A stretch of 64,000 nucleotides of DNA, taken from Candidatus Latescibacterota bacterium. Lineage in GTDB: Bacteria > Latescibacterota > UBA2968. Every line of letters starts with the position of its first letter. Positions within the stretch are counted from its first letter, which is position 1. Position numbers and translations under genes: made by a program. The notes beneath the pieces were generated by a model. It was not told the DNA's origin and did no database searches. It worked only from the letters and a program-made list of their open reading frames with translations. Location of the stretch: the NCBI GenBank assembly GCA_965116885.1, contig OZ220741.1:3008001-3072000 (forward strand), given 5' to 3'. Shown one piece after another: positions 1,939 through 47,990 of the stretch.

Positions 1939-1971
1939 AGTGCCTTAGAATATTCTGAGGCACTTTTTTTT
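1939..1971 (+). terminator. Intrinsic terminator-like hairpin upstream of the glycosyltransferase operon
   Basis: Near-perfect palindrome AGTGCCTTAGAATATTCTGAGGCACT running into a T8 tract. Confidence 0.7.
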
Positions 1972-2075
1972 GTTTTTTTCGAAAATGGGCACGGCATTTG
2001 CAGATATGCTGTGCGCAAATCGCGTGAATAGGATTGAGGCGGACGGGATGTCCGCGATGATAGAGGGGTGAAGTT

Positions 2076-3329
2076 TTGAAAAATACTACGGTTGCATTTT
2101 ATAGCCAGCACCTCATTGGCGTGGGGCACCATTTTCGCAATCGACAGATTGTCAATGAACTGGTGAAGACATGCGATGTGTTTTTTATCGATGGCGGACG
2201 TCCTGTTCCCGAGGCTGATCTCGATGAGCGGGTGACGCGTATTTCTCTGCCGCCGCTTCGCACGGGCGCACAGGGCATTGAGCCTGTTGATACGGAGAGA
2301 GATTTGCAGGCTGTGATGCGCGAGCGTCAGAGCAGGCTTTCCGAAGCGATGGAACAGATTTGCCCCGATGTGTTTGGTGTTGAGTTTTTCCCCTTTTCCC
2401 GGTGGTCGCTCAAGAGCGAGATTCTCAATACTATTGTCAGGCTCAATGAGATCAATCCCGGCGCGAAGGTGTTGTGTTCGCTGCGCGATATTCCCACGAG
2501 GGCAAAAAGCGATGTGTTGCAACCGACTGTTGCGCTTGCACAGAGACGCGATGGAGACGCGATGCGGTTTTATTCGGTGCCTTTTGGCGGGATACATCAC
2601 GAGTATTTGGCTTTTAATCAGCGGTATTACGAGGAGGTTGTGCCCGTGTTGAATCAGTATTTCGATGCGGTACTGGTGCATGGCGATTCTCAACTGTCCC
2701 GGTTGGAAGATCACTTTCCCTGGGTTGCTGATATCGGTATTCCCATCATTTATACGGGGTTTGTTTCTGAGAAACTCGAGAACGCATCTCGACCTGATGG
2801 TGCGCCGAATAGGTATGTGCTGGTCAGTGCTGGCGGTGGGGCTGAGGGGCTTGCGCTTGTTGCACCGTGTATTGAAGCGTGGAAGCAATTGGCACAGGAC
2901 AATGCGCTCAACGGACGTGAGATGGTGATTTTTGCCGGTGCGTTTATCGAAGAGAAGCATTTTGAAGCTTTGCGCGCGTTGTGCGGTGATGGTCCGTTTC
3001 ACATTGAGCGCTTTACGTCCAATTTTTTGGCGTGGATGAAATACGCAGATTTGTCGATTAGTCGCGCGGGCTACAATACGTGTATGAATGTGCTTGAGAC
3101 ACAAGTGCCATCGATTCTGGTGCCGAGTATTGCGATGGATGATCAGGAGTTTCGCGCACAGAAGTTGATGGGGTTGGGTATTGCAGGGGTGATACATCCC
3201 GATCAAATAGGTGCGGGAAAGATGGCAAAAGCTATTGGCGAAATGCTCGAACGTTCTGTGCCTGAACACCATCTATCCCTGGATGGTGCCGAGCAAACGC
3301 GAGAATTTATAGACAGCGGTACAAGATAA
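2076..3329 (+). CDS. GT-B glycosyltransferase (COG4671-like, GT28 C-terminal-like domain)
   Basis: N-terminal YSQHLIGVGH, VEFFPF, SLRDI, VLVHGD, LVSAGGG, SISRAGYNT, DQEFRA; TTG start after GAGGGG. Confidence 0.85.
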   Translation: MKNTTVAFYSQHLIGVGHHFRNRQIVNELVKTCDVFFIDGGRPVPEADLDERVTRISLPPLRTGAQGIEPVDTERDLQAVMRERQSRLSEAMEQICPDVFGVEFFPFSRWSLKSEILNTIVRLNEINPGAKVLCSLRDIPTRAKSDVLQPTVALAQRRDGDAMRFYSVPFGGIHHEYLAFNQRYYEEVVPVLNQYFDAVLVHGDSQLSRLEDHFPWVADIGIPIIYTGFVSEKLENASRPDGAPNRYVLVSAGGGAEGLALVAPCIEAWKQLAQDNALNGREMVIFAGAFIEEKHFEALRALCGDGPFHIERFTSNFLAWMKYADLSISRAGYNTCMNVLETQVPSILVPSIAMDDQEFRAQKLMGLGIAGVIHPDQIGAGKMAKAIGEMLERSVPEHHLSLDGAEQTREFIDSGTR

Positions 3330-3344
3330 AAAATGAGGTGAAAG

Positions 3345-4748
3345 ATGAAAATTTATGTGTCACATCAGTATCACTACCGCGAGAAAGTAATGGCGTCGAA
3401 TAGCGGGGCAGTTCTTTCGGGGTTTAACCATGTGCAGGCGTTATCGAAGTATTGCGAGGTGTATATGCCAGCGTCTGAAGCGGTGGATTATGGTCCGAAT
3501 TTGCACGGTATTCGGTTCGCATTTGAGACGATTGATTCGTCTCGTCAGTGGTTTGCACGACAGGATTTTGATGGTGTGTTGATGTTTGAACCCAAAGCCG
3601 ATGACGTAGCGTTTTTCCGCCATGTGTGTCCCGCACCCATTGTGATTCGGCTGTCGTGTTCTTTTGGAAATAATCGGGATTTTGTCGATAAGGTGCTTCA
3701 ATGTTATTCACTGTTGCGGCCTTGTGATGCCCTGTCGCCCAAGTCGGCGTATGTCGCGGACGAAATCGGCAAGCTGGTGTTTGACAAGTCGTATTTGCAT
3801 CCGATTACCAATGGGATAGATGCCGAGGTGTTTGTGCCGATGGATAAGTTGCAAGCGCGCAAAGAGGTCGCGGATAAGACGGGTGATCAACGTTTTTTGG
3901 AGATGCCTGTGGTGGGTTTTTGTGGGCGGTTTGAGCCGGGCAAGGGTGCGTATCCGTTTTTGCGAATGGCGGACCTGAATCCCAATGTGTTGTTTGCCGT
4001 GATTGGCAAGCAGTTCGCACCCGTGACACATGCGCCCAATGTGATCTTTTTGGGCGCGCAACCCTATACGGATATGCCGCTGTATTACAATATGCTGGAT
4101 GTGTTGTGCGCGCTGTCGGTGTATTCGTATGAGTCGTGTCCTTCAACTGTAATAGAGGGCATGGCGTGTGGTCTTCCGGTTGTGGCGACAAATTTTGCGG
4201 GTGCGCCAGAGTTGTTGGGCAGTTGTGGGCGGTTGATTGAGATTGAGCGGTTTGAAGACGAGCCATTGAATGTGACGGGTTATATCGCTCCAGAGGTGAT
4301 TTCAGATGCTGTGCGCGATTTGTTGAATAGTAAGACAGAGCGCGTGGAAATGGGAGAGGGTGCTCGCAAACGCGCACTCGAATTTTCCTGGGATTGTATG
4401 GCGCAGCAGCACATGGCGCTGTTTGAAAATCTGCGGACCAAACGCGATGTATCCGCATATCCGATTCCAATAACCGTGAGTTTTACACAGGGTTGTGATG
4501 TCTCGGGTGTGCCGAAAAGTATGTCTAAGGGGTTTAACTATTTGGGCAGCGCGCAAGGCCCATTGCCGCGCATTTCGTTTTTGGGACAAGATATGTCCCT
4601 TATTGAGGGTGTGGGCCTTCACTTGACGCAACATTTACATCCAAACGAAGTCGAAGCTGCTCTGCTGGGCTTATGCAGTGATCGCGACACAGCATACAAA
4701 ATGCTTCGCAAAATTCGACACTTAAGCAATATGCTCACGGCTTTCTGA
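3345..4748 (+). CDS. GT4-family glycosyltransferase with ~100-aa C-terminal extension
   Basis: ITNGID, FCGRFEPGKG, ESCPSTVIEGMACGLPVV (E-x7-E), FSWD; RBS GAGGTG. Confidence 0.88.
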   Translation: MKIYVSHQYHYREKVMASNSGAVLSGFNHVQALSKYCEVYMPASEAVDYGPNLHGIRFAFETIDSSRQWFARQDFDGVLMFEPKADDVAFFRHVCPAPIVIRLSCSFGNNRDFVDKVLQCYSLLRPCDALSPKSAYVADEIGKLVFDKSYLHPITNGIDAEVFVPMDKLQARKEVADKTGDQRFLEMPVVGFCGRFEPGKGAYPFLRMADLNPNVLFAVIGKQFAPVTHAPNVIFLGAQPYTDMPLYYNMLDVLCALSVYSYESCPSTVIEGMACGLPVVATNFAGAPELLGSCGRLIEIERFEDEPLNVTGYIAPEVISDAVRDLLNSKTERVEMGEGARKRALEFSWDCMAQQHMALFENLRTKRDVSAYPIPITVSFTQGCDVSGVPKSMSKGFNYLGSAQGPLPRISFLGQDMSLIEGVGLHLTQHLHPNEVEAALLGLCSDRDTAYKMLRKIRHLSNMLTAF

Positions 4749-4803
4749 TTGGTGTCGAAGAAGAGCTGTTTGCGCTAAATCTAAGAGAAAGGAGGTGAAA
4801 GAA

Positions 4804-5034
4804 ATGACTGAGCGCATTACATCAATGCCAGCACAAGTTTCTGTGACCTGTGCTCCACTCCCTGGTCAAGAACTCGAACTGGCACATGGTGAGATGGCGA
4901 ATGCATCAGGAGGATGCCTGCTTCCAGGAGAAGATTTGTTTGAGCACGATCCATTTGAGCCTCTTGAAGATATGATCGAAGATGCGGTGGATTATATCGG
5001 AGATACGGTGAGTGAATGGTGGGCTTCCTGGTAG
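4804..5034 (+). CDS. Putative RiPP precursor A (37-aa double-glycine leader plus 39-aa acidic core)
   Basis: RBS AAGGAGGTG before ATG 4804; leader ends ELAHGEMANASGG; lies upstream of a C39 peptidase exporter. Confidence 0.8.
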   Translation: MTERITSMPAQVSVTCAPLPGQELELAHGEMANASGGCLLPGEDLFEHDPFEPLEDMIEDAVDYIGDTVSEWWASW

Positions 5035-5136
5035 CAATCGCGCTACACGCCATAAGACGCTGTTTCTGTTATTCAGGTACTGGACGAAAACCATCTTTTT
5101 TGCTGAATCTTACAATTCATTTATCCGGAGGATATT

Positions 5137-5520
5137 ATGTATAATCGCGTAACTTCAGATTCAGGCGCCGCTTTTGCTTCTTGCACGACACTGCCTATTC
5201 ATCAAACAATGCTCAATGTTAAAGAAATGGCAGATATTGATGGTCTGGGAAGTTTGGCAGATACTATTGATGCAGCGGTAGATTATATTTCGGATGTTGT
5301 TGATGGAATAGGAGATAGTGTTTCTGATTTTGTTGATTCGTTATATTTTTACCCCCAGGATGCTGAGCCTATACACGTGTCTCATCCACATATTTTCCCA
5401 GTACCCCCCCCTGATACAATGAAGATTATTACTTATGAAAGACATACCTGCGACGAGCCGGTCGTGCATTCATCTTGTGGGACTTGTATGTGCTGGGAGG
5501 TGGTAAGGCAGTGTTTTTAG
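5137..5520 (+). CDS. Putative RiPP precursor B (paralogous leader, acidic repeats, Pro/His-rich linker, Cys-rich tail)
   Basis: RBS GGAGG; first 36 aa align without gaps to precursor A; core shares AVDYI(S/G)D. Confidence 0.72.
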   Translation: MYNRVTSDSGAAFASCTTLPIHQTMLNVKEMADIDGLGSLADTIDAAVDYISDVVDGIGDSVSDFVDSLYFYPQDAEPIHVSHPHIFPVPPPDTMKIITYERHTCDEPVVHSSCGTCMCWEVVRQCF

Positions 5521-5610
5521 GTGCGCTGTGCATCAATCCGTCATTCCTGCATATGCTCCACGACGTGTGCAGGAGTGGCGGCGTTATATGAGGCAGGACG
5601 GTTGGAGAAA

Positions 5611-8600
5611 ATGAATCTTTCGCTTTTTTTCGCCAAAAACTCAGTTCGGTCACAATCTGTTCGTTTTCCCTTTGGGCGTGTTGTTTTTCAACAGGGTCAG
5701 GCGGGTGAGGCGTTTTACATTGTGCAGTCTGGACGGTTGCGGGTGATGAAGCAGGATGCAAATGGCGATTCGGACACTGTGGGCTATTTGTATGCAGGTG
5801 ATCATTTTGGCGAAGGGGCACTGTTGACCAGGCAGGGGCACCGAGCGACGGTGCGAGCGGTTGAGGATGCGGAGGTGTTGCAGGTGCCGAAGGATGAGTT
5901 TTTTAAGGCTGTGAGAAAAAGTTCTGATGTACGAGCTTACCTCGAAGAACAGATCTCCTGTATTGCGTATCGGGATTTTACGCGTTTTTTGAAAGGGGAT
6001 GTTCCAAACGAGGCGATGCGGGTGTTGTTCGCGCGGTTGAAGCGCGAGGCAGTTGAGGAGGGTGTGACCGTTGTTGAGCGAGGTCAGTTGGGGCAGCGAT
6101 TTTATTTGCTTGGCAGCGGTCAGTTGGAGACTGTGTTTGAAAATGGGGATACGGTGGTTTTGCGCGCGGGTGATTATTTTGGCGATGGTAGAGATGATGA
6201 AGCGGTCATTCGCAGTCGGCGTGATAGCGTGCTCTTTTATATAGATAAAAACGATTTTAATAAGTTAAAAGCTATGATGCCGGGATTCGAGAAGGCGTTG
6301 GGGAGAGGCCGCATATCGCGTGGAGAACAGCGAACGAATGGAGCAGGGTTTAGACAGGCACGGGATGATCGGCAAGCCCTGTCCCCATCGGGGGGGCGAG
6401 AGGCTACACCGGTTGAGCAATCTGTTATCCAAGAAGACACAGACGCCAATACGGCATCCAATTTGGTCAATATCAGAATAGACGGTGAAAAACCACAAGT
6501 GCCCACCTGGTTTCGCTTCCCGTTTTTGAAGCAACACGATCAATCGGATTGTGGCGCGGCGTGTTTGGGCATGATTTGTAAGTATTACAAGATGCCTATT
6601 GGATTGAACAGGCTGCGCGATATGTCCAATGTGTCGCGGTATGGCACGTCGATGGCGGCGTTGGCCGAGGCTGCGGAAACCATAGGTTTTGTTACCCGCG
6701 GCGTGCGAACGGGATATGAAGCTCTGATGCGAACAGAATTGCCAGCCATTCTCCACTGGGAGGGCAATCATTTTGTGGTCTTGTATCAGATAAATAAAAA
6801 GGAGGTGAAGATAGCAGATCCCGGCGTGGGCATTCGCAAGTTGTCGCGGTCAGAGTTTGAGAAGGGCTGGACAAACAGGGCACTGTTGTTGGAATACACG
6901 GATCAGGTGGCAGAAAATGAACCGTCTCAGTCTTCTTTTAAGCGGTTTTTTCCATTGATCCGGCCCTATAGGGGCATATTGATTGAGGTGCTATTAGCGT
7001 CTTTGGTGCTCAGTTTATTTGGTCTGGCATCGCCTATTTTTATGCAGACGATTGTCGATCAGGTCTTAGTGCATCACGATAAGGATTTGTTGAATTTGAT
7101 GCTGGTGGGTATGGTCGTTGTCGCGTTGTTCCAGATGGGCACATCGACGTTGCGCACCTACTTAATCGGGTATATGAGTGCGCGGTTGAGCATTGCGATG
7201 TTGTCGCGTTTTTATCGGCATTTGTTGGCGCTGTCCATGCAGTTTTTTGCTCTGAGGCGCACGGGCGATTTGACCACGCGATTTCGGGAGAATGCAACGA
7301 TTCAGCGTTTGTTGACGGGTGCGACGGTTTCTGCGGTTCTGGATTTTATCATGCTTTTTGTCTATCTGGGTCTGATGTTTTATTACAATGCCGAACTGAC
7401 GCTGGTGATGCTGATTTTTGTGCCGCTTTCTATAGGTCTCACGCTGATTTACACACCCATTTTGAAGGCTTTCAGCCAGCGCGCTTTTCTGGCGCGTGCC
7501 GAACAATCATCGGTTTTGATTGATTCGCTACACGGCATTGATGTGGTCAAAGCCGAGGCGGTTGAGCGCGCGACACGGTGGCATTGGGAAGGTAAGTTCA
7601 CAAAGGAAATGCAGATTGGCTTTCAACGGTTAAAAATGCAGATGCTGTTTGGAGGAATAGGAAGGGTGATCAATTTGCTGAGCGGTACAGTGATTTTGTG
7701 GTATGGCGCCTCATTGGTGATTGCGGGGGACCTGTCGGTTGGGCAGTTGATGGCGTTTAATGCGCTGATTGGCAATGTGATGGGACCGATTATGGGGTTG
7801 ATTGGAATATGGCCGCAGGTGCAAGAAGCGCGTATTGCACTGGATCGGTTAAATGATGTGTATGATACGCAGATGGAGGATGCGCGGCAACAGGGTCAGG
7901 GTTTGATCTTAAAGCATTTGGAAGGGCGCGTGGTTTTTGAGGGGGTATTTTTCAGATATGGTGTCGGTTCTGATGAACCTTATGTGTTGAATAATATAGA
8001 CCTGACGCTTGAGCCGGGTCAAAAAGTTGCGATTGTGGGACGTAGCGGTGCGGGCAAAACGACGCTGGTGAAACTGGTGTCTCGTTTGTTTGATCCGTCA
8101 GAAGGGCGGGTGACCTTAGATGGTATGGATGTGCGGGATGTGGATCCCCATTGGTTGCGGCGGCAGGTGGGTATGGTGATGCAGGAGCCGTTTTTGTTTT
8201 CTGGGACGATTGCTGAGAATATCGCCATTGGTCAGACAGACGCGGACATGGATCGCATTTTGGAAGTGGCAAATCTATCTTGTGTACACGATTTCGTGAG
8301 CGATATGCCTTTGGGCTATGAGACAAAGGTGGGTGAGCAGGGTGTGGGGCTGTCTGGTGGACAACGGCAGCGGATTGCGATTGCACGGGCACTGTATTGT
8401 GATCCGAAAATTTTGATTTTTGATGAGGCGACCAATGCGTTGGATACGGATTCGGAACAGGCGATTCAGGCGAATTTAGATCTGTTTTTGGATGCTCGCA
8501 CGGCGTTGATTATCGCGCATCGGTTGAGTACGGTGCGGGATGCGGATGCGATTGTGGTCTTAGATAAGGGTCATATTGTGGAGATGGGCACACACGATGA

Positions 8601-8661
8601 GTTGATGGTGCAAGAGGGGTTGTATTATCACATGTGCAGTCAACAGTTGCAGGTGGTGTGA
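5611..8661 (+). CDS. Peptidase-containing ABC transporter (two cNMP-binding-like domains, C39 peptidase, ABC membrane and ATPase domains)
   Basis: VFQQGQAGEAFYIVQSG/GDHFGE cNMP-type motifs; QHDQSDCGAAC, HWEGNHFVV, IADP (Cys-His-Asp); GRSGAGKT, LSGGQRQ, DEAT; ATG 5611 follows GGAGA. Confidence 0.95.
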   Translation: MNLSLFFAKNSVRSQSVRFPFGRVVFQQGQAGEAFYIVQSGRLRVMKQDANGDSDTVGYLYAGDHFGEGALLTRQGHRATVRAVEDAEVLQVPKDEFFKAVRKSSDVRAYLEEQISCIAYRDFTRFLKGDVPNEAMRVLFARLKREAVEEGVTVVERGQLGQRFYLLGSGQLETVFENGDTVVLRAGDYFGDGRDDEAVIRSRRDSVLFYIDKNDFNKLKAMMPGFEKALGRGRISRGEQRTNGAGFRQARDDRQALSPSGGREATPVEQSVIQEDTDANTASNLVNIRIDGEKPQVPTWFRFPFLKQHDQSDCGAACLGMICKYYKMPIGLNRLRDMSNVSRYGTSMAALAEAAETIGFVTRGVRTGYEALMRTELPAILHWEGNHFVVLYQINKKEVKIADPGVGIRKLSRSEFEKGWTNRALLLEYTDQVAENEPSQSSFKRFFPLIRPYRGILIEVLLASLVLSLFGLASPIFMQTIVDQVLVHHDKDLLNLMLVGMVVVALFQMGTSTLRTYLIGYMSARLSIAMLSRFYRHLLALSMQFFALRRTGDLTTRFRENATIQRLLTGATVSAVLDFIMLFVYLGLMFYYNAELTLVMLIFVPLSIGLTLIYTPILKAFSQRAFLARAEQSSVLIDSLHGIDVVKAEAVERATRWHWEGKFTKEMQIGFQRLKMQMLFGGIGRVINLLSGTVILWYGASLVIAGDLSVGQLMAFNALIGNVMGPIMGLIGIWPQVQEARIALDRLNDVYDTQMEDARQQGQGLILKHLEGRVVFEGVFFRYGVGSDEPYVLNNIDLTLEPGQKVAIVGRSGAGKTTLVKLVSRLFDPSEGRVTLDGMDVRDVDPHWLRRQVGMVMQEPFLFSGTIAENIAIGQTDADMDRILEVANLSCVHDFVSDMPLGYETKVGEQGVGLSGGQRQRIAIARALYCDPKILIFDEATNALDTDSEQAIQANLDLFLDARTALIIAHRLSTVRDADAIVVLDKGHIVEMGTHDELMVQEGLYYHMCSQQLQVV

Positions 8662-10044
8662 ATGGCAGAACCGCTTTTGGAGACATCTCCCGAGACAATG
8701 TCTCCACAAATTATCCAGGAACAAGATGACGCAGCAGAAGAAGTGTATGCGTTTATGGGATCTTTGCGGCCCTTTTGGGCGCGCGCATTGCTCTATATTG
8801 TGCTGCTGTTTGTGATTGTTGCCACTATCTGGGCGTGGTGGAGTAAGGTGGATGTGGTGGCATCAGCGCCTTTTCGGCTTGTGCCCCTCGGACAGGTGAA
8901 GACGATGCAGGCACAGCGAGGTGGTGAGATCGAGTTGATTGGTGTGAAAGAGGGAGATCATGTCGAGAAGGGGCAGGTGTTGTTCAAGCTGAAATCGTGG
9001 GAGACGTGGGGAGAGTTGCGGGAATGGGAGCAGGCAAAGATGGCTTTTCAAAAGGCAGAGTATGATTTCAAGACGGTGTTGCCACAAAGGGCAAGGTTAA
9101 ATCGAGAGACGATAGGAGCACTGGAGCAACGTCTCTCTGTTTTGCAGCAGTTTATGGTGGCACACCAGAATGCATTGGAAGATTATCAAAGCGATGTGGG
9201 GGATGTTGTGGGATCGAAAACCACAACATCTGACGCGGGGTTGCAAGCGCAGATTGGATTTCGACAGGCTGAGATTGATCATTTGAAAGGGGAGTTTTTG
9301 CAGCAAAAGACGCTGTTTGAGCGCGAGTTGATCAGTCGGGCGGATATGAATCGCGCACGCGTGCAGTATTTGAGTGCTCTGTCCGCACTTCCGGGACGTA
9401 TGTCAGAGATATACAAGAATGAAATGGCTGTGGCTGATCTCAAGCGGCAAATCACAGAAGCGCGTATTGCACACGGGCGCGAGGCATCGCAGATGCGACA
9501 CGCTTATGAGACTGCACAATTGCGATTAGAACAGGCGCGCAAACGCATTGATCGCACCCTGGAGGCCGAGTCGGATTTGATCTTAGCACCTGAAACGGGG
9601 ATTGTCACACAGGTGATGGTGAATGCGATGGGACAGGTGATCAGCAAGGGGCAGGCTTTGGTTGCACTGGCACCTGCTGCTGCGCCGATGGTTGCAGAAG
9701 TAATGGTGTTGAATAAAGATGTGGGCTTGCTTAAAGTTGGGCAGTTGGTCAAGCTGAAATACGATGCGTATGCCTTTCAGGATTTTGGTATCAAACGCGG
9801 ATGGCTTACACACATCTCACCCGATGCAGTGATTGATGGACATATTGGACCGATATTTAAGTGCGTTGTTGAACTGGAAGAACATACGATGCATGTGAAA
9901 GGGTATGACAAACCTCTGATGTTCGGCATGAAGGGTACGGCAGAGATGATGACAGACCGGCAATCGGTTTTGCTGATGTTGCTTTCTCCTTTGCGACAGC
10001 TTTACGAGTCGGCGAAGTACGATGTTCAGGAGGGTGCGTTGTGA
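8662..10044 (+). CDS. HlyD-family type I secretion membrane fusion protein
   Basis: Single N-terminal TM helix, VKEGDHVEKGQVL, long coiled coil, APETG, FGMKGTAE; starts immediately after the exporter stop. Confidence 0.93.
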   Translation: MAEPLLETSPETMSPQIIQEQDDAAEEVYAFMGSLRPFWARALLYIVLLFVIVATIWAWWSKVDVVASAPFRLVPLGQVKTMQAQRGGEIELIGVKEGDHVEKGQVLFKLKSWETWGELREWEQAKMAFQKAEYDFKTVLPQRARLNRETIGALEQRLSVLQQFMVAHQNALEDYQSDVGDVVGSKTTTSDAGLQAQIGFRQAEIDHLKGEFLQQKTLFERELISRADMNRARVQYLSALSALPGRMSEIYKNEMAVADLKRQITEARIAHGREASQMRHAYETAQLRLEQARKRIDRTLEAESDLILAPETGIVTQVMVNAMGQVISKGQALVALAPAAAPMVAEVMVLNKDVGLLKVGQLVKLKYDAYAFQDFGIKRGWLTHISPDAVIDGHIGPIFKCVVELEEHTMHVKGYDKPLMFGMKGTAEMMTDRQSVLLMLLSPLRQLYESAKYDVQEGAL

Positions 10045-10826
10045 TGGCAGAGGATGCTACGTTGATTCAGGTTAATGGTACCGAGGTGTCGTTGCGCCAG
10101 GTCGTGCGGCAGATGGGTGTTGCTGATAATCTGCGTTTTTTTAATGAATTTGCGCGTAGAGAATTGATCCGGCAACTTGCCCGACGTGAGGGCGTTTGTG
10201 CAGCACAGGAAGATATTCAGCGCAAGGTGAATGAATGGCGGTATAAGCATCGCCTCGAACGGGTGGAAGATACAGAGGCCTATCTTACCAAGCGGGGTAT
10301 TACGCTTCGGAATGTGGCAGAAGATGCCGAGGTGAGGCGGCTGGAGTTTTTGCTGTCTGAGAAGATCGCCGAGGGACAGGTCGAACCGTATTTCGCGCAA
10401 CACACACTTGAATTTGATGAGGCGGAGATTTGCTGGATTTTTCACGCGGATGAGGGTGTGATCGAGGAGGTTGATTTGCAGATACGAGAAGATGGTGCAG
10501 ATTTTTACGCGATGGCGCGTCGGTTTTCTCAAGATGTACGCACGCGATCAGGTAGTGGCTTTTTGGGTTGTGTGCGGCGCAAGCAGTTGCCAAAGGGGAT
10601 TGCTGCGCGCGTTTTTGCTGCTTCATCAGGTGAAATTTTGGGACCGGAAAAAGTATCGAAAGGATTTGCGCTATATTTATTGCAGAAACGCTACCCAGCA
10701 ACACTAAATGAACGGACAAAAAAGGAGATCCGCAAGCACCTGTTTAATCAATGGTTGCAACGAGAAGTACAGCGGGCAGATATACGGTATCCGATTTGGG
10801 GATCGCGAAAGCAGACGTTAAAATAG
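10041..10826 (+). CDS. PpiC/parvulin-like peptidyl-prolyl isomerase-type chaperone associated with type I secretion
   Basis: DFYAMARRFSQD...GSGFLG...GEILGP parvulin-like segment; overlaps the HlyD stop. Confidence 0.8.
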   Translation: MMAEDATLIQVNGTEVSLRQVVRQMGVADNLRFFNEFARRELIRQLARREGVCAAQEDIQRKVNEWRYKHRLERVEDTEAYLTKRGITLRNVAEDAEVRRLEFLLSEKIAEGQVEPYFAQHTLEFDEAEICWIFHADEGVIEEVDLQIREDGADFYAMARRFSQDVRTRSGSGFLGCVRRKQLPKGIAARVFAASSGEILGPEKVSKGFALYLLQKRYPATLNERTKKEIRKHLFNQWLQREVQRADIRYPIWGSRKQTLK

Positions 10827-10868
10827 AGGTATTGTTCTCGTTTTCTGGAAATGGCAATGATTATTCGT

Positions 10869-10897
10869 TTGACAATACTACCATAATATGATAGTTT
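10869..10897 (+). promoter_or_regulatory. Sigma70-type promoter of the methyltransferase gene
   Basis: TTGACA (10869-10874), 17 nt spacer, TGn extended -10 TAGTTT (10892-10897); GGAGG RBS downstream. Confidence 0.65.
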
Positions 10898-10925
10898 ATA
10901 CATACATATTTGGAGGATAAAATTT

Positions 10926-13604
10926 ATGAGTCAAAAATACAAAGCTGTTTACTTTCCAGATCTCCCGGCTCCTACATCTCAACAAAAATCGTTGACCTTA
11001 GCGTTTGGCAAGAAAACACATGGATTATATGAGCATGTTAAAGATCTTTCCAGTGCTGAACTGCGCCAGTTGTTGGGTAATGATTATCGAACCCTTGTGG
11101 CTAATGCTGAAGCGCAGGACTTGCCATTAAATACCTATTGTCTTCGACAGTTAAAGCAATCAATAACTCTCATTCAGGAACAAGCACCTCAGCTTTCACT
11201 GCCAAGCATTGGTGTCGAAACAAAATTATTCGACCCAGTAAGTGTGACTTTCAAGGGCGGACGAAAAGAACCTTATGTGCGATGGTATCCTTACTTAGAG
11301 GGATATTCGACTCAATTTGTAGAATCTATCTTGGAAAATTACGCCCCAAATGCACGGGTGATTCTTGATCCCTTTGCTGGAACGGGCACCACAGCCTTCA
11401 CTGCGTCGCAACTTAACAAAACAGCATATTTTTGTGAGATAAATCCTGTATTACAATTTATTTCTACAACAAAAATACGAGTCCGACGATTAAAATTATC
11501 TCAGCGCTGCACGTTAGCTCAAGATCTCATTCAATCAAAAGAGACGCTAAAGAAACTGAAAAAATTCTCGCGAAATTACATCTTACACCAGGCATATACG
11601 CAAACCTTTGGTGATAGTCTATTTTTTGATGAGCCTGTTTATGACCTGGTTTTGCGAACGAGATCATGGATTGATGAAGTTGCTCGTGAGAATCCAATGT
11701 TAGCTGACTTAATTGTGGTTGCTACCTTATCGGCCCTCGTTCCGGCATCTCGGATGAAGCGAGCAGGTGATTTGAGATACAAAACACCTGAAGAGCTTGA
11801 ACGGCAAACAATTCCCTTAGTTGAAGGTATCTACCAGAATATTGATCTGATAGCTCATGATATTCGAAATGATGTAAATGGTTTGGAAACGGAGCCGCTG
11901 TTGATATGTGAAAATGCTCGCCTATTAGATAACCTATCACCTCTAAGTGTTGATACTGTCATAACCAGCCCGCCTTATGTAAATGGAACAAACTATTTTC
12001 GCAACACAAAGATAGAATTATGGTTCTTGAATTGCCTGAAGGAAAAGGAAGATTTGACAAAATTTCGTGCGGCATCTGTAACGGCAGGCATCAACGATGT
12101 TACCGTTGCAAAAGTGCCTGTTTCGTCTCATCCAGATGTTCAAAAGATCGTTTCAATTCTCGAAAAGGAAGCTTATGACTCCCGCATTCCCCGCATGATT
12201 ACCAGCTATTTTAGCGAGATAACAGACATATTTCGGGCAATTCGCTCTCACTTGACGCCTGAAGCGACAGTGGCGATTGATATTGGTGACTCATGCTATG
12301 CAGGTATCCACGTTCCGGTTGATCAGTTGTTATCAACGTGTTTGCAAGATCTGGGGTTTGTTCAAGAAGATTATGTGACGCTACGACAACGCAAATCCAG
12401 AGGTGGGATGTTGCTTAAACAATCACTGCTTGTTTTCAAGTATAGTCAAAAAAAGAAATACAAAAAAAAGGAGAGAATTCCTTACTGGAGTGCCGAATGG
12501 GACAGTTTCAAGGAAAACCTGCCTCATCAAAAAACGCCATTTACAAAACGCAACTGGGGGAATGCCCGGCACTCTCTATGCTCATACCCGGGAAAACTAA
12601 AGCCTGCTATCGCACATCACCTGGTGCAGACATTTGTCCCGAAAGGTGGGCGGATTTTAGATCCTTTTGCGGGGGTTGGAACAATCCCATTTGAAGCGGC
12701 ATTGGCTGATAAACTCGCCTACGGTTTTGAGATCAGTCCTGCTGCTTTTGCTATTGCCAGCGCAAAGGTTCAATGCCCCACGAAGGAAGGCTGTGAGGTA
12801 GTTATTCAAACAGTAAAAAATTTTATTAAATGTAATTCAACTACTGATCAGGAAATCACTGAAGTTAAGCATCTGGGTTTCAATGGTAAAATTGCCGAGT
12901 ATTACGAACCCCAAACCATGAGCGAAGTTATCTTGTCTCGCCGCTACTTCCAGGTTCATCCACCGGAGACTCCAGAAGATCGATTTGTGTTTGCCTCACT
13001 GCTGCATATTTTACATGGCAATCGCCCATACGCCCTCAGTCGTCGCTCTCATCCGCTTACACCTTACAAACCGACAGGAGCTTATGAATACCGCCCGCTA
13101 ATAGATCGGCTACGCGCAAAGGTTCAAAGAAGTCTGGCCGAAAATTTGCCTGTAGATTTTCGATCCGGCAAGATGTTCTTCCAAAGCGCAACAAATTGGT
13201 GGCCTCAAGAAGTTGATCAACTGGATGCCGTTATTACGTCCCCTCCCTTCTTTGACAGTACTCGATTTTATCTCGCGAACTGGTTGCGTTTGTGGTTTGC
13301 CGGTTGGTCTGCACTCGATTTTGATACCTGTCCATCTGTTTTTATTGATGAACAACAAAAGAAGAGTTTTGATGTCTATATCCCGATTTTGCGTCAGGCA
13401 AGGGAGCGACTTAAATCTGATGGCGTTGTTGTTTTGCATTTGGGGAAAAGTGCAAAATGCGATATGGCTGCTAACTTACAGAAACTTAGTAAAAGGTGGT
13501 TTCGTTCAGCCGATCTTTTCGATGAAAGTGTCGCCCACTGTGAATCCCATGGTATTCGTGATAAGGGAACGGTTACATCCCATCAGTATTTGGTCTTGTA
13601 TTAG
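10926..13604 (+). CDS. Fused double DNA amino-methyltransferase (probably N4-cytosine)
   Basis: Two motif sets: LDPFAGTGTT...ITSPPY and LDPFAGVGT...ITSPPF, joined by a Lys-rich linker. Confidence 0.88.
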   Translation: MSQKYKAVYFPDLPAPTSQQKSLTLAFGKKTHGLYEHVKDLSSAELRQLLGNDYRTLVANAEAQDLPLNTYCLRQLKQSITLIQEQAPQLSLPSIGVETKLFDPVSVTFKGGRKEPYVRWYPYLEGYSTQFVESILENYAPNARVILDPFAGTGTTAFTASQLNKTAYFCEINPVLQFISTTKIRVRRLKLSQRCTLAQDLIQSKETLKKLKKFSRNYILHQAYTQTFGDSLFFDEPVYDLVLRTRSWIDEVARENPMLADLIVVATLSALVPASRMKRAGDLRYKTPEELERQTIPLVEGIYQNIDLIAHDIRNDVNGLETEPLLICENARLLDNLSPLSVDTVITSPPYVNGTNYFRNTKIELWFLNCLKEKEDLTKFRAASVTAGINDVTVAKVPVSSHPDVQKIVSILEKEAYDSRIPRMITSYFSEITDIFRAIRSHLTPEATVAIDIGDSCYAGIHVPVDQLLSTCLQDLGFVQEDYVTLRQRKSRGGMLLKQSLLVFKYSQKKKYKKKERIPYWSAEWDSFKENLPHQKTPFTKRNWGNARHSLCSYPGKLKPAIAHHLVQTFVPKGGRILDPFAGVGTIPFEAALADKLAYGFEISPAAFAIASAKVQCPTKEGCEVVIQTVKNFIKCNSTTDQEITEVKHLGFNGKIAEYYEPQTMSEVILSRRYFQVHPPETPEDRFVFASLLHILHGNRPYALSRRSHPLTPYKPTGAYEYRPLIDRLRAKVQRSLAENLPVDFRSGKMFFQSATNWWPQEVDQLDAVITSPPFFDSTRFYLANWLRLWFAGWSALDFDTCPSVFIDEQQKKSFDVYIPILRQARERLKSDGVVVLHLGKSAKCDMAANLQKLSKRWFRSADLFDESVAHCESHGIRDKGTVTSHQYLVLY

Positions 13605-13608
13605 CGCC

Positions 13609-14628
13609 CTACTTCTGATGTAGTACTCGCTGATACTCTTGATCGGCTCGCTGAATCCATGCGGGTGAAATAGTCGTTGAATACTTAAAAAAGTCAAAAT
13701 TTTCATTCTTTAAAATCTGATTGCGTAGCTTGATAATTTCTCTCATATAGGCTGCATATTTTGTCAAAAGATGATCAACCTGTTCAGCGGTCTTGAGGCG
13801 TTCAATGGCTTCGGGGTTATAGTAAGCTGATCCAGCGAGTCTCTCGTATTGAATACCTGTCAGAATTGAGAGTTCTCTTAACTCGTTATCCGAGTAGTAC
13901 TCTGAAGGCCATTTGTCCGATTTCTCTCCATTATGTTCTCGACATAGCAGCGTCGCATTTTCAGTTGTCAGAGGCCATAAAAAAACAGCGGGAAGTGTGT
14001 GATCAAGCGGACGTTCTTTGGCATCAGCTACTTTTCGCAGGTCTTTTCGGCACTTAAAACAACGATAGCCAAAATGCTTATAGACGGCTTCGCTGTCAAT
14101 TTTTTTAGTTGCAGATAGATCGAGATACATCCGTCGCTTTTGCGCTGCTTCGCGATGTTGATCCGGCAACCGGGTTTGATTTTTTATAGCATTGTAAAAT
14201 TTTTTGCACAGACTACACTCGCCCTGGCGACCTGACTTTCGAGCGCTGTGTCGATCAAACATATGAAGTGGTTTAATCGTATTGCAGAGAATACAAAACT
14301 TATACTCTTGCGCTTCCTCAATATAGTCATCGTGCGGAATTGTAAACCGGCCTTCTTCAATAATGGATTTTGTTCTCCCATCTAACAGTTTGTGCAGTTC
14401 GTACTCAAAAAATAGAGTCTCGTCACCTGATCGAATGGCTGTCTCACAAATTGGACAGGTGAGTTCGAAATCATCGCCAATCTCATCTTTACGGATAAAG
14501 ATAAATTCCCTACACTCACTATTCAAACACTGGAAGCCTTTGAAGACAACATCTCCCATTCCCCGGACGTGATCTGCACGAATCTGATTAATTTTAGCGA
14601 CTCTTGTGTACGGCTTGCGTCTCGCCAT
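13609..14628 (-). CDS. HNH endonuclease with several Zn-binding Cys pairs; probable restriction endonuclease
   Basis: CLNSEC, CPIC, CILC, CSLC, CFKC, then LDHTLP...ENATLLCREHNGEK; convergent with the methyltransferase. Confidence 0.8.
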   Translation of the reverse strand: MARRKPYTRVAKINQIRADHVRGMGDVVFKGFQCLNSECREFIFIRKDEIGDDFELTCPICETAIRSGDETLFFEYELHKLLDGRTKSIIEEGRFTIPHDDYIEEAQEYKFCILCNTIKPLHMFDRHSARKSGRQGECSLCKKFYNAIKNQTRLPDQHREAAQKRRMYLDLSATKKIDSEAVYKHFGYRCFKCRKDLRKVADAKERPLDHTLPAVFLWPLTTENATLLCREHNGEKSDKWPSEYYSDNELRELSILTGIQYERLAGSAYYNPEAIERLKTAEQVDHLLTKYAAYMREIIKLRNQILKNENFDFFKYSTTISPAWIQRADQEYQRVLHQK

Positions 14629-14890
14629 TTTAATTTCCTTATCTTAGTGATGGCCCTATATCTGAGTATAAATCCAAATCGTAAGCATTCTTCAATCGCT
14701 ACGCCGATGGCTAACGCAAAACTCCATAATCGGATAACTCTAAACGAGGGCGCAAGGACACGCTCGTAAAAGAATATGCCGCATTCGAAGTCGAAAGCAT
14801 CGCCAAACTACACAGGCCTAGAATCTCTAAGATGTCTTAGGTGCAGGTAAGCTAAGACATGCACCATTCTATACGGTATGTTGAGAATAG

Positions 14891-16231
14891 TTAGTCTGTA
14901 GAGTGAGGAATCTCGGGCTGGAAATCTTTTCCAAATAGCTTTTTATATCCGCGTGTAAATTCCTCTGTTTCTCTGAAATCCCGAAAAGCAGGCCAAGTTT
15001 GAAAACCTTCATCTGTTACTTCATCTTTTCCCATTCCACCCATGATTTGTTCTGCTACATCAAAATTTTCTAATAATACCTCACGTACAAGAAGAAATCG
15101 CGCACTTGCCGCACTCCAATCAACACTTGTGAGAAGGGCCTCCATTTTTTCCTTCTTACCACTCCATTTATAGGCCATTGCCCTATTCATAATAAAAACA
15201 CGCCTACTCAAGTCATTGGATATATGTTTATCAGGTAAGTCCATTCCATATTGGAATACAATGGCTGCGAATTCCCATCTTTCCTCTTTGAGATGATCGA
15301 ATCCCCAATCTAACAAGTGCCCATCGATAATCTCTAGTTTCTTTGGAAAGAGTCTTCGAGTGATACTTTGTGCAATGTATAATCCAAGTTCGTATACTAT
15401 TTCTACTGATCTATCAAAATATTCTTCTGATACATGTAGCTCTTCTCCCAATTTCTGATCTCCACTTAACGTGTATCCTGATTTTTTGCACGCTTCAAGA
15501 TAATGTCTATTGATAACACCACCTGAGTGTACGAATAAGTTCCGTCGTTGGACGAGTTCTGAAAGATCAGCCAATGAGGAAAATTTTTCTATTATTCCAA
15601 TTTTAAAGTGTTTGTCTAAGTAATCTAATTGTTCTAAGTGAGAATCACGAAGTAGGACGTCAATTTCCCTTTCAATAAATCGGTCTCGAATCTCATCAAT
15701 TGAGCGAGCATCTATGAATTCATCATATCTGAGCGTTTTATCACGATTTTTAAGTCTTTTCGGAAAAGTCCGATATGAAATCCTCAAAATTTCTGCCACA
15801 TGCTCATCAAGACACGATATTAGAAGAACAACAGACTGGCGACGGAACATATTTTGAGTGCGTACAATACGATTGACGATGCCGCTGAGGCGCTTTATTT
15901 TATTAATAAGTTGCCATACTTCATTGGATATTAAAATAGGAGAATTATCTGCACGTCGAAATTTAGACTCTATGACAGAAGCATTATCTGCTAATTCTTG
16001 TGAGAATTCTGCAGATTGTTGATTAAGCACTGGTACTACTGTATCAAACATTTCCCTTGCAGAATCGACATCTGTTAAAAATTTTCTTGTTGCATCGAGA
16101 AGCTCTTCATATGGTTTTTGTTGGCTCTCTTTTTCGTTTGGATCCGACTGAACTGGAGATTTCTTAGCCCGTGCTTTTTTTATGGGTGCTTTAGTCTTTG
16201 AGGTGTGCTTTGGTGCTCTGTTTTTAGCCAT
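14891..16231 (-). CDS. Hypothetical protein with HEPN-like RxxxxH motif
   Basis: AT-rich, helical-looking ORF containing ELVQRRNLFVHSGG; upstream helix VLLISCLDEHV. Confidence 0.6.
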   Translation of the reverse strand: MAKNRAPKHTSKTKAPIKKARAKKSPVQSDPNEKESQQKPYEELLDATRKFLTDVDSAREMFDTVVPVLNQQSAEFSQELADNASVIESKFRRADNSPILISNEVWQLINKIKRLSGIVNRIVRTQNMFRRQSVVLLISCLDEHVAEILRISYRTFPKRLKNRDKTLRYDEFIDARSIDEIRDRFIEREIDVLLRDSHLEQLDYLDKHFKIGIIEKFSSLADLSELVQRRNLFVHSGGVINRHYLEACKKSGYTLSGDQKLGEELHVSEEYFDRSVEIVYELGLYIAQSITRRLFPKKLEIIDGHLLDWGFDHLKEERWEFAAIVFQYGMDLPDKHISNDLSRRVFIMNRAMAYKWSGKKEKMEALLTSVDWSAASARFLLVREVLLENFDVAEQIMGGMGKDEVTDEGFQTWPAFRDFRETEEFTRGYKKLFGKDFQPEIPHSTD

Positions 16232-44376: not shown

Positions 44377-44720
44377 GAATTAAGCTCCTTGTAATAAAAA
44401 AATAGAATACGCGATTCAGCTAAACATAACTTGTGTGGCCTTGTGTCGAAAAAGTCCGCTCGTTGTTGGTTTGGGAAAACGGTGTATTTTTTTGTCTTTA
44501 CAACCCGTTACAATTTATTACAATTTTCATGGGAACGAAGTGGTTTAGATGGTTGTTTAATGCTGTAAATTACAGATTCTTAGAGATATGCAACTTTCTT
44601 TTGATTCACGCATTTAAAAAAAAAGTAGTAAATTCCAATATATAGTGGGCGTTGAGAGTATGTCAACGCTGTCTCACAAGGATATTTCTCACAGTTGATT
44701 CCGTCGCAAAGGAGCTAAAC

Positions 44721-47700: not shown

Positions 47701-47990
47701 ATGTGCAGGGTGAATTGTTCTTCGACATCGGGGGAGCATTTAACCGCGTCAATTGGAGAGACGGATGGGTCTCCAGGGATGGGGGGTTTGAGCTCAATGT
47801 CCCGCAGCACTTTCGCAGCGGATCGAGACATGGACTACCAAAACCTCAAATGGCTGCCGGATACGGGTTTGGCGTGCGGGTAAATTTGGGTTATTTCCTG
47901 TTCAGATACGATCTGGCCTGGCCTACGGATCTCGCCGAAACATACCATCCACACCAGTATTTCTCAATTGATTTCACGGGTTTGTTCTAA
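44721..47990 (+). CDS. Omp85/BamA-family protein with N-terminal zincin-like domain and PD40 (TolB-like) repeats
   Basis: Signal peptide; HHELVH...WIAEGIAEY; repeated WSPDG; DYRKY, PLRG, YGFGVR, terminal Phe; ATG follows AAGGAG. Confidence 0.85.
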   Translation: MARWYRLFARNAIFVLILGVSTSAFGQEYFGKNKVNYSQYAWHYIDSEHFTVYFDKGSLGLAEFVAKEAERSLVHIEKTLKYTMKDRYPIVIYNSHNGFSVSNIISGEQSEFTGGYTEFAQGRVVIPFTGSYGDLQHVIHHELVHAVTIELWTGGGWLGSLVSQTSTLPPLWIAEGIAEYVSRYGWHKEHDNFMRDATITGYVPTIEMMSLSYFAYPGGNSVFYMIEQEYGKDKVASFISSFRTAKTPDKALKASLGFGMKELEEKYQLWLKRQYWNEINLRHTPKEMATNLTEREDRRSSYNLSAALSPQGDKVAYLTDRNGTFDIYLMSAIDGKDLGRLVEGQKSSAFESMFVLRPGFTWSPDGRHIAFAAKSNNKNTLYILEVKNKQIRKRFKFDLDGLFEPTWSPDGEKIAVAGIKDGWSDIYVVDLNDESLTRLTNDPYDERHLDWSPDGTWIAMSSDRPDTHLTFSGGKDFAFGQYDIFLMRTDGSEMRRIVASEDAEDSHPVWGADSKHIAFVSDRTGVGNIYIANVDSTQKIYPITNLLSGAQYIDWSADGKKIVFNAFHKGALDIFVMRDPLAQRKEMADLPRTRFVKRLAGEDEKMFVELQKEKYESRKIAKVEADSTAVDSTAEKTEKKVAQWISDQEALAAAESAPADSTAEIDTTHPVAGSPEMADTGKQGVKNWGEKEFQVKKYKLKFKPELFGAQAGFDTFYGVSSSIVLSMSDVMGDHRATLVTSLNFSLKDSDFLLAYAYLKNRTNYGAQLFHTRFFFFDNTGRLTADRYYGLSGMLERPFNRFARLELSTRFVSVDREEVFTDINNYLYQPGFRGVGRFSSQLIERRRAAIGEVALVGDSALYSLFGAVDGHRYRLNFEGSGVGMEFATFTLDYRKYMRLLNEYTFAIRMSGGTSYGPNSTMFFLGGVNNPVNPTFSTIASVDQSRVFFSSYVWPLRGARLLEMAGDSYVLANVAFRFPLIRQLAMGWPLPFFFQNVQGELFFDIGGAFNRVNWRDGWVSRDGGFELNVPQHFRSGSRHGLPKPQMAAGYGFGVRVNLGYFLFRYDLAWPTDLAETYHPHQYFSIDFTGLF

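Follow-up and report, generated by a model that had tools for sequence, protein, structure and literature searches.

In the 64,000-nt stretch of contig OZ220741.1 of an uncultured Candidatus Latescibacterota bacterium analysed here (assembly GCA_965116885.1, positions 3,008,001 to 3,072,000; hereafter the window), seven genes, all co-oriented on the + strand, fill positions 2076-10826 and encode two GT-B glycosyltransferases (labelled GT1 and GT2, which are names of the two proteins and not of enzyme families), two small peptides A and B, and a three-gene export cassette. The original prediction had presented this cluster as a candidate new class of peptides that are made ribosomally and modified after translation (RiPPs); its gene calls and coordinates proved correct, as did the tight packing of the last three genes, in which the HlyD gene starts at the base after the exporter stop and the PpiC-like gene overlaps HlyD by 4 nt. 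Our data are best explained by a family of ribosomal-peptide gene clusters that is specific to Latescibacterota and of which this locus is one copy. The cluster comprises the following features:

2076..3329, + strand: GT1, a GT-B glycosyltransferase of the GT1/GT28 kind, 417 amino acids (aa), matching PF04101 (Glyco_tran_28_C) with E 4.7e-12.
3345..4748, + strand: GT2, a GT4-type (retaining) GT-B glycosyltransferase, 467 aa, matching PF00534 with E 1.6e-18.
About 4437-4745, + strand: orphan C-terminal domain of GT2 (residues about 365-467, about 100 aa), conserved and matching no family.
4804..5034, + strand: precursor peptide A of 76 aa, preceded at 9 nt by AGGAGG and scoring 60.8 bits against the leader hidden Markov model (HMM).
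4804..4914, + strand: leader of peptide A, 37 aa, ending in G-G, placed by leader HMM and alignment.
5137..5520, + strand: precursor peptide or small protein B of 127 aa, preceded by GGAGGA and scoring 68.5 bits against the leader HMM.
About 5137..5247, + strand: leader of peptide B, ending in G-L and then G, placed by leader alignment.
5611..8661, + strand: peptidase-containing ABC exporter (PCAT) with two N-terminal cyclic-nucleotide-binding domains, assigned by Pfam and TIGR01193.
8662..10044, + strand: HlyD-type periplasmic adaptor, matching PF13437 and PF16576, and TIGR01843 with 204 bits, just under the cut-off of 208.65.
10041..10826, + strand: PpiC/SurA-like protein with no evident signal peptide, matching PF00639 with E 6.9e-12, with further sequence matches to PrsA and SurA.

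To place this block among its relatives, one genome per species (GTDB set) was scanned with an alignment of GT1, which gave 367 pattern-matching stretches, 360 of them encoding a GT1 relative; the best 80 of these 360 were kept, corresponding to 79 loci, each with at most 10 kb of flanking DNA to either side. An identity of at least 50% (50-90%) is reached by GT1 in 32 loci from 22 assemblies, 21 of which are titled Latescibacteria or Latescibacterota and one only 'bacterium', and all 32 loci preserve the block as far as the DNA reaches. GT1 is the one glycosyltransferase found in every one of these 32 loci, and GT2 follows it in 29, being truly missing in L011, while L013 and L024 stop at a contig end. 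The original prediction had named a lack of synteny between the glycosyltransferases and the peptide and exporter genes in other genomes as evidence that would count against it, and the synteny was found: the exporter, with its cyclic-nucleotide-binding, C39 and ABC parts, is present in 28 of the 32 loci (L013, L024 and L025 are cut, and the fetched DNA of L018 ends inside a long peptide/immunity array), and leader peptides are present in 30. HlyD and the PpiC-like gene were seen in 23 and 21 loci, respectively, the remaining loci ending earlier. A leader profile of 37 positions, iterated on the 79 loci, detected 62 open reading frames (ORFs) in these 30 loci and none in the other 47, and the two loci without a leader are those cut directly after GT1. 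Within the 64-kb window the profile detected peptides A and B only, and across the related loci a cluster holds one to six precursors.

Moreover, eight of the 32 loci (L025-L032) form a diverged paralogous group in which all components have drifted together, with identities of 50-57% for GT1, 51-66% for GT2, 70-77% for the ABC part, 77-83% for the C39 domain, 53-62% for HlyD and 48-53% for the PpiC-like protein. A single genome can carry up to four clusters (OZ244847.1, with L008, L010, L029 and L031), and the flanks differ from copy to copy, with glnE, DUF362, sulfatase, PhyH, oxidoreductase and TonB receptor genes in sister loci and guaA in the window. The block, set in unrelated flanks, appears to have been duplicated, moved and kept intact as a unit. 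No sugar-nucleotide biosynthesis genes, which might have given a clue to the sugar donor, were found in the sister-locus flanks, which hold unrelated housekeeping or catabolic genes. Altogether, we regard it as very probable that the locus is a functional unit for exported leader peptides.

The two small ORFs are substantiated by their relatives: peptide A has 36 clusters of relatives (clustered at 90% identity) at 47-89% identity and peptide B has 16 at 55-94% identity, and the existence of these related clusters indicates that both are real genes and not chance ORFs. Neither peptide has a Pfam match, and NCBIfam gave no family at E ≤ 0.01, hence no NHLP or Nif11 leader model was matched. The best-conserved part of both families is formed by the N-terminal 37-40 residues, and to judge from their alignment the N-termini of A and B are versions of one leader with the consensus M-x-N/R-R-I/V-T-S/T-x-P-x-Q-x-F-x-x-C-x-x-L-P-I-x-x-x-x-L-x-x-x-E-M-A-x-x-x-G-G. 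Double-glycine leaders carry G-G (or G-A/G-S) at positions -2/-1 and acidic and hydrophobic residues at about -8/-7, -12 and -4. The last 17 positions of the consensus fit this classical signal, with Leu at -12, Glu-Met at -8/-7 and G-G at -2/-1, and peptide A itself has L(-12), E(-8) and M(-7) followed by G-G. Of the two double-glycine leaders originally proposed, that of peptide A thus stands, whereas that of peptide B ends in G-L and then G in the leader alignment. Among 136 distinct leaders, 86 end in GG and 26, including that of peptide B by alignment, in GL; the residue after G-L is W, C or G, which would make an unusual cleavage site for a C39 protease.

In addition, the first 20 leader positions, which lie outside the export signal, are more conserved than the rest (2.45 vs 1.91 bits per column), as would be expected were the leader also read by something other than the C39 domain. 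Searched against 1.84 billion representative proteins, the leader profile gave 92 matches at E ≤ 0.001, of which 83 are proteins of 54-191 residues. In the sequences retrieved the leader lies at the N-terminus or close to it, a few having an upstream extension of up to about 45 residues; the other matches are long proteins, two of which were inspected and are repetitive. The leader of A and B represents a new 37-residue leader family with hypervariable cores.

The cores are of several types: short acidic-aromatic peptides (...VSEWWASW, ...PFPWPM, ...HPWSM), Gly/Ala-rich hydrophobic sequences (WDWGDF...GAVGG...), a transmembrane-like helix followed by a poly-Cys tail (...CCCCCCCDD), GKGG/TTGKTG repeats, Ser/Thr/Gly-rich stretches, and the B type with its Cys-rich end. 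The acidic cores described originally are found in peptide A and in part of B, and the description does not extend to the family as a whole, in which the cores are hypervariable. Peptide A, which is strongly acidic, lacks a hydrophobic helix, and its core carries an invariant Cys at the start, the only Cys of the core, and DAVDYIGDTVSEWWASW at the end; a reading of its SGG-C stretch as a lipobox was rejected, as no hydrophobic signal segment lies ahead of it. The core of peptide B contains the motifs AVDYISD and GDSVSDF and a Cys-rich C-terminus. A motif of hydrophobic residue, Ser and acid recurs in the family, [VIALFT]S[ED] being present in 66 of 107 non-redundant cores compared with 21 ± 3.8 (maximum 33) in 500 shuffles, and the longer form GDx[VIA]S[ED] in 21 of 107 with 0.1 expected. 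In peptide A it reads GDTVSE, Ser70 and Glu71 being invariant throughout the A family, and in peptide B it reads GDSVSD, Ser63 being invariant throughout the B family. We treat this enrichment as a lead and not as a statistic, because the redundancy filter is crude and related cores share ancestry.

Two kinds of unusual precursors were observed in addition. In the hybrids P0158 and P0194 the N-terminus of a B-type leader is joined to the end of an A-type leader and an A core, an arrangement that points to recombination among the precursor genes inside clusters. Leader peptides whose core joins a transmembrane-like helix to an acidic stretch and ends in a poly-Cys tail (CCCCCCCDD, RCRCCCCDD) are encoded in L018 (15697-16083 and 17560-17922) and L019 (13167-13430), with a gene of the Rce1-like CAAX-protease family directly after each, and this pairing of a poly-Cys tail with a CAAX-type protease may be more than immunity.

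The exporter ORF is open from 5521, with a likely ATG start at 5611, and contains two cNMP_binding stretches, a Peptidase_C39 domain (PF03412, E 1.9e-39), a six-helix ABC_membrane region and ABC_tran. With 529.8 bits against TIGR01193 ('peptide cleavage/export ABC transporter') it lies over the cut-off of 523.85, and it aligns full-length to PCAT1, HlyB and ComA (PCAT1 entry 4ry2, E 2.5e-136, residues 303-1011). The catalytic columns of the PCAT1 peptidase domain are kept, with Cys in DCGAACL, His in HFVV and Asp in ADPG, and the Cys column corresponds to the position that entry 7n87 has replaced by Ala, in agreement with the earlier statement that these three residues are intact. Both marks of a PCAT, namely catalytic C39 residues and full-length similarity above the curated cut-off, are present; the exporter and its C39 protease are intact, and cleavage of the leader is predicted.

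The PpiC-like protein reaches 80.6 bits against TIGR04500 ('putative peptide maturation system protein'), which has a cut-off of 180, and the match covers profile positions 87-337 of 340, leaving the first approximately 86 positions (the N-domain) unmatched and placing the protein outside that family. MirC, a PpiC-type member of TIGR04500, is a required and co-purifying partner of the graspetide synthetase MirB of rosaritide and is encoded beside a PCAT (PMC13097080). Reasoning by analogy with MirC, the peptide may be held, or a glycosyltransferase stabilised, by the PpiC-like protein of the window, and a role as chaperone or partner for the peptides or their enzymes is likely. A long C39-ABC transporter together with HlyD and a SurA-like rotamase is a hallmark of the cyanobacterial 'group I/II' bacteriocin clusters (PMC3140520), and the export cassette as such is of this already described type.

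Pfam scans and a BLAST map of the sister clusters revealed a number of extra genes, and the window copy is a minimal version of the cluster. Fuller sister clusters have a response regulator with an AraC DNA-binding domain upstream, and most related clusters carry a third, canonical GT4 that is fused in frame to GT1. The order GT4-GT1 occurs as single ORFs of 835-873 aa in 15 loci and split in two further ones (L007 and L020), and the order GT1-GT4 in L029 and L032; fusion of the two in both orders gives good reason to think that GT1 works in the same pathway as a GT4. Between the precursors and the exporter, 11 loci carry Rce1-like CPBP membrane proteases (PF02517) and 8 loci DUF3267 membrane proteins, and in the diverged group L025-L032 TPR proteins are found there as well. 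CPBP/Abi proteins are classical factors for the self-immunity of bacteriocin producers, and as CPBP genes here follow hydrophobic cores, it is probable that many family members are bacteriocins. As a separate observation, an insertion sequence element, consisting of an HTH_Tnp_1 transposase ORF and an rve integrase ORF, lies between the DUF3267 and CPBP genes of L012 (14765-15951).

For A and B specifically, the term bacteriocin is weakened by the lack of an immunity-type gene in the window copy. The pair might be non-antimicrobial and act, glycosylated or not, as a secreted signal, a matrix component or a host-interaction factor. Such a role would be in line with the window and eight A+B-type sister loci (L004, L005, L006, L009, L010, L015, L022 and L023), which lack CPBP and DUF3267 genes in the space from the peptides to the exporter, with the strongly acidic peptide A lacking a hydrophobic helix, and with the cyclic-nucleotide-sensing domains of the exporter. 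It is countered by a DUF3267, CPBP or shared unfamilied gene just upstream of GT1 in L004, L006, L009, L021, L005 and L010; immunity may be placed elsewhere, and the window may have lost its immunity gene. We consider a non-antimicrobial role somewhat unlikely.

Turning to the enzymes, GT1 matches the GT28 C-terminal domain as its sole Pfam family, and its NCBIfam matches to MurG and macrolide glycosyltransferases are weak and all far under the curated cut-offs. Its AlphaFold2 (AF2) model has a predicted local distance difference test (pLDDT) score of 85.8 and a predicted template modelling score (pTM) of 0.84, and its Foldseek neighbours include the kitacinnamycin glycosyltransferase, OleD/OleI, CalG1/4, YjiC, plant UGTs and MurG, so that GT1 is likely an inverting enzyme of the MurG and natural-product-glycosyltransferase kind. 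The stretches GGG and AGYNTCMN, which we take to be catalytic or donor-binding motifs, are invariant in the alignment. GT2 contains the stretch ESCPSTVIE (E-x7-E), both Glu of which are invariant in a 17-sequence alignment. A C-terminal E-x7-E stretch is the motif of retaining GT4 glycosyltransferases and is catalytic or donor-binding. The GT2 model (pLDDT 73, pTM 0.72) has GlgM, MshA, BshA, PimA/B and sucrose-phosphate synthase as neighbours, with E 1e-16 to GlgM and MshA, and the GT-B fold together with the E-x7-E stretch places GT2 among the retaining GT4 enzymes.

The C-terminal extension of GT2 is conserved in the same alignment, for example in Q-G-P-L-P-R and P-N-E-x-E-A, and is modelled with low confidence (pLDDT 32-75) as a beta-hairpin, a disordered loop and three helices. 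It has no Pfam match at E ≤ 10 except for a chance zinc-finger in 2 of the 17 members, its sole match among PDB sequences has E 1.4, and an Atlas search gave no usable match. Among the seven cluster proteins, Pfam and NCBIfam revealed no LanB/C/M, YcaO, radical SAM or thiol-disulfide enzyme, which bears out the earlier statement that the two glycosyltransferases are the only recognisable tailoring enzymes of the cluster.

On balance we lean slightly towards the view that the glycosyltransferases glycosylate the leader peptides. Several points weigh against this view, and its main weakness is that the structural neighbours of GT1 and GT2 all act on small molecules or lipids and none on proteins. 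Neither enzyme matched the protein-glycosylating families of the SunS-type GT2, GT41 or GtfA-type kind in Pfam and NCBIfam, and no protein glycosyltransferases of the GtfA/GtfB, GT41 (HMW1C/OGT) or EarP type appeared in the Pfam and NCBIfam tables or among the Foldseek matches listed. No result of our analysis links the glycosyltransferases directly to a peptide acceptor, and the likeness in topology between the GT2 C-terminal domain, in its low-confidence model, and a (PqqD-like) RiPP recognition element is only an impression. Furthermore, the synteny count is inflated, since all positive loci belong to one lineage and the 32 loci are not independent, and the enrichment of the core motif is likewise phylogenetically non-independent. 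The G-L ending of peptide B and of 26 of the 136 leaders is unusual for a C39 substrate. Finally, GT1 paralogs at 41-45% identity occur without this leader and exporter, in the 79 loci no GT1 relative below 46% identity is associated with either, and relatives at 27-37% sit in polysaccharide-type loci.

These polysaccharide-type loci, found in Acidobacteriota, Desulfobacterota and others as well as in the Latescibacterota paralog L058, contain GT4, heparinase II/III-like proteins, APH-like kinases, DUF2334 and an MsbA-like ABC exporter. In L048, L066 and L058 (around positions 4000-16000 of each) we observed a recurring set with a second GT28-like glycosyltransferase, a GT4, a heparinase II/III-like protein, two APH-like kinases, DUF2334 and an MsbA-like ABC exporter, which looks like an uncharacterised glycan locus and may be a source of the peptide-linked glycosyltransferase pair. 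A different setting is seen in L040-L042, where a 43% GT1 paralog adjoins an AraC response regulator, HlyD, a TPR-Peptidase_C39_2 protein, an ABC exporter and a small conserved protein; this phylum thus brings GT1-like enzymes together with peptide-export genes on more than one occasion. The small protein, of about 107-123 aa, begins with MK-K/T-LVKR and has an acidic, Trp-rich end (L040 9347-16977, L041 being similar), and L040 and L041 may represent a second glycosyltransferase-linked peptide export system with a different leader.

The leading rival to peptide glycosylation is that the glycosyltransferases make a glycolipid or a short glycan, with a lipid or small molecule as acceptor, and that this product is co-regulated with the peptides, for example altering the producer's envelope for self-protection or leaving the cell separately. 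The closest structures of both enzymes do act on such acceptors, the wider GT1 family pairs with GT4 in the polysaccharide-type loci with their MsbA-like exporters, and GT4-GT1 fusions would suit stepwise assembly of a glycan on any acceptor. However, Pfam scans of the clusters revealed no flippase, polymerase or polyprenyl-phosphate transferase, and the glycosyltransferases alone are constant among the enzymes next to the leader, which in its N-terminal half is more conserved than export requires. GT2, moreover, has its conserved extra domain, and separate immunity-type genes are already present in many clusters; we judge a glycolipid or glycan product to be improbable. Export of unmodified peptides, as class II-like bacteriocins or signals with the glycosyltransferases as neighbours by descent only, would agree with the single lineage of all positive loci and with the frequent lack of any need for modification among double-glycine peptides, but it is very improbable given that the block of glycosyltransferases, peptides and exporter survives duplication to about 50% identity, several per genome and amid unrelated flanks, that the order of the glycosyltransferases next to the peptides is constant, and that no leader peptide occurs away from GT1 in the DNA examined.

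Returning to glycosylation of the leader peptides, the locus may be pictured as follows. Small precursors would be made with the common 37-residue leader and very different cores, and the N-terminal 20 residues of the leader would recruit the cytoplasmic tailoring proteins, perhaps together with the PpiC-like protein. GT1, as the constant enzyme, and one or two GT4 enzymes would then put a mono- to oligosaccharide on the core, with the PpiC/SurA-like protein serving as chaperone or partner. The most plausible attachment site of the sugar would be the Ser of the recurrent motif (as in GDxVSE), with the Cys after the G-G of peptide A as the alternative, although the probability that we give to the motif Ser taken by itself is low. 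A cyclic-nucleotide-gated PCAT would cut after the G-G-type site and pass the product to HlyD and an outer-membrane channel, and the products of many sister clusters would probably act as bacteriocins. In its most complete form, the proposal is a new RiPP class in which the 37-residue leader guides a paired or fused set of an inverting GT1/GT28-like and a retaining GT4 enzyme, which builds a di- or oligosaccharide on the Ser of the conserved acidic motif (GDxVSE-like) of hypervariable, prochlorosin-style cores. Export would be through a PCAT gated by a cyclic nucleotide, and the system would have diversified to several clusters in a single genome of an uncultured phylum; in effect, the products would be small bacterial 'proteoglycan-like' peptides. 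As a whole this is a tentative proposal, which we hold to be possible but short of an even chance. What the locus represents more safely is a well-supported candidate for a new variant of a RiPP or bacteriocin system, and the gene block makes a new kind of sugar-decorated secreted peptide plausible while falling short of proof.

On the 5' side of the cluster in the window, guaA ends at 1709 and is followed by a terminator-like structure that marks the upstream boundary of the cluster:

1939..1974, + strand: terminator-like hairpin 3' of guaA, with an 11-pair stem (1939-1964) followed by a T-run.

A promoter scan was uninformative, with 6 sites compared with 10.9 in shuffles. On the 3' side the cluster is followed by a DNA methyltransferase gene in DNA of lower GC: immediately downstream, at 10926-16231, the GC content falls to 0.40-0.44, and the region encodes an 892-aa protein with two DNA-methylase regions (N6_N4_Mtase and D12-like), a Cys-rich protein of 338 aa on the minus strand that matches no family, and a protein of 445 aa that matches HEPN RiboL-PSP weakly, and looks like a restriction/defence islet. 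Elsewhere in the window two very large multi-domain proteins are encoded: 44652-47987 specifies a 1112-aa protein with Peptidase_MA_2, PD40 beta-propeller repeats and an Omp85 domain, and 56438-61282 a 1615-aa protein that combines Peptidase_M28 with an FtsX-like permease region.

Few ribosomal peptide natural products are glycosylated, and a demonstration of glycosylation here would have several consequences. It would mean that GT-B enzymes act as the sole tailoring step, under one leader, on more than 100 different cores, and it would provide a new pair of leader and enzyme for peptide glyco-engineering. It would also open a first functional route into the specialised metabolism of Latescibacterota and give an example of polysaccharide-type glycosyltransferase pairs being recruited to peptides. 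In the literature we found no description of this cluster, of COG4671 or of GT-B enzymes as a defining RiPP step, in line with the original claim of an undescribed architecture, although survey supplements could list such clusters as 'RiPP-like'; three sponge-microbiome surveys mention Latescibacterota biosynthetic gene clusters, in their accessible portions in general terms only.

Compared with known systems, the cluster shares the combination of C39-ABC transporter, HlyD and rotamase beside double-glycine precursors with the cyanobacterial 'group I/II' clusters (Wang, Fewer, Sivonen 2011; PMC3140520). The word 'glycosyltransferase' does not occur in the main text of that study, and the precursors there are of the NHLP, Nif11, HetP or other types, whereas peptides A and B match no NCBIfam or Pfam family and come from another phylum. 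With the rosaritide (mir) graspetide cluster it shares a PpiC-type protein next to a PCAT (PMC13097080), but the tailoring enzyme there is an ATP-grasp ligase, and the PpiC-like protein of the window is under the TIGR04500 cut-off with its N-domain positions unmatched. The conserved long leader, hypervariable cores and several precursors per genome resemble the prochlorosins (see also the abstract of PMC10783134); unlike in the prochlorosins, however, there is no LanM, the candidate promiscuous enzymes are glycosyltransferases, and the precursors lie inside the cluster and are not scattered. Cacaoidin and other glycosylated RiPPs also have a GT4 encoded in the cluster, which has been proposed to add a sugar, yet in cacaoidin it stands beside two GT2 enzymes and glycosylation is secondary to lanthionine-type chemistry (PMC8068269), whereas here the glycosyltransferases are the sole tailoring candidates.

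The closest comparison is with the glycocins, which, according to PMC11912497, are the only RiPP class defined by glycosylation and have enzymes predicted to belong to family GT2. Like sublancin, glycocin F, thurandacin and enterocin F4-9, the cluster combines double-glycine-type leaders with cutting and export by a C39-ABC transporter, and glycosylation, here proposed, is the defining modification of the glycocins. Unlike in the glycocins, whose S/O-glycosyltransferases are of the SunS-type GT2 kind with a GT-A fold, both glycosyltransferases are GT-B enzymes and no GT2-family gene is present in the cluster, two or three glycosyltransferases occur and are often fused, there is no thiol-disulfide oxidoreductase gene, and the leader has 37 residues with a conserved N-terminal half. 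Glycocin cores form a helix-loop-helix held by two nested disulfides; such a two-disulfide hairpin is impossible for peptide A because of its single core Cys, and a HlyD adaptor is present, in contrast to the glycocins, because the host belongs to a Gram-negative-type phylum. The cluster thus works most like a glycocin system but departs from it in two defining features, the GT2-family enzyme and the disulfide hairpin with its oxidoreductases, and if glycosylation is shown, there is a real chance that it could count as a new class.

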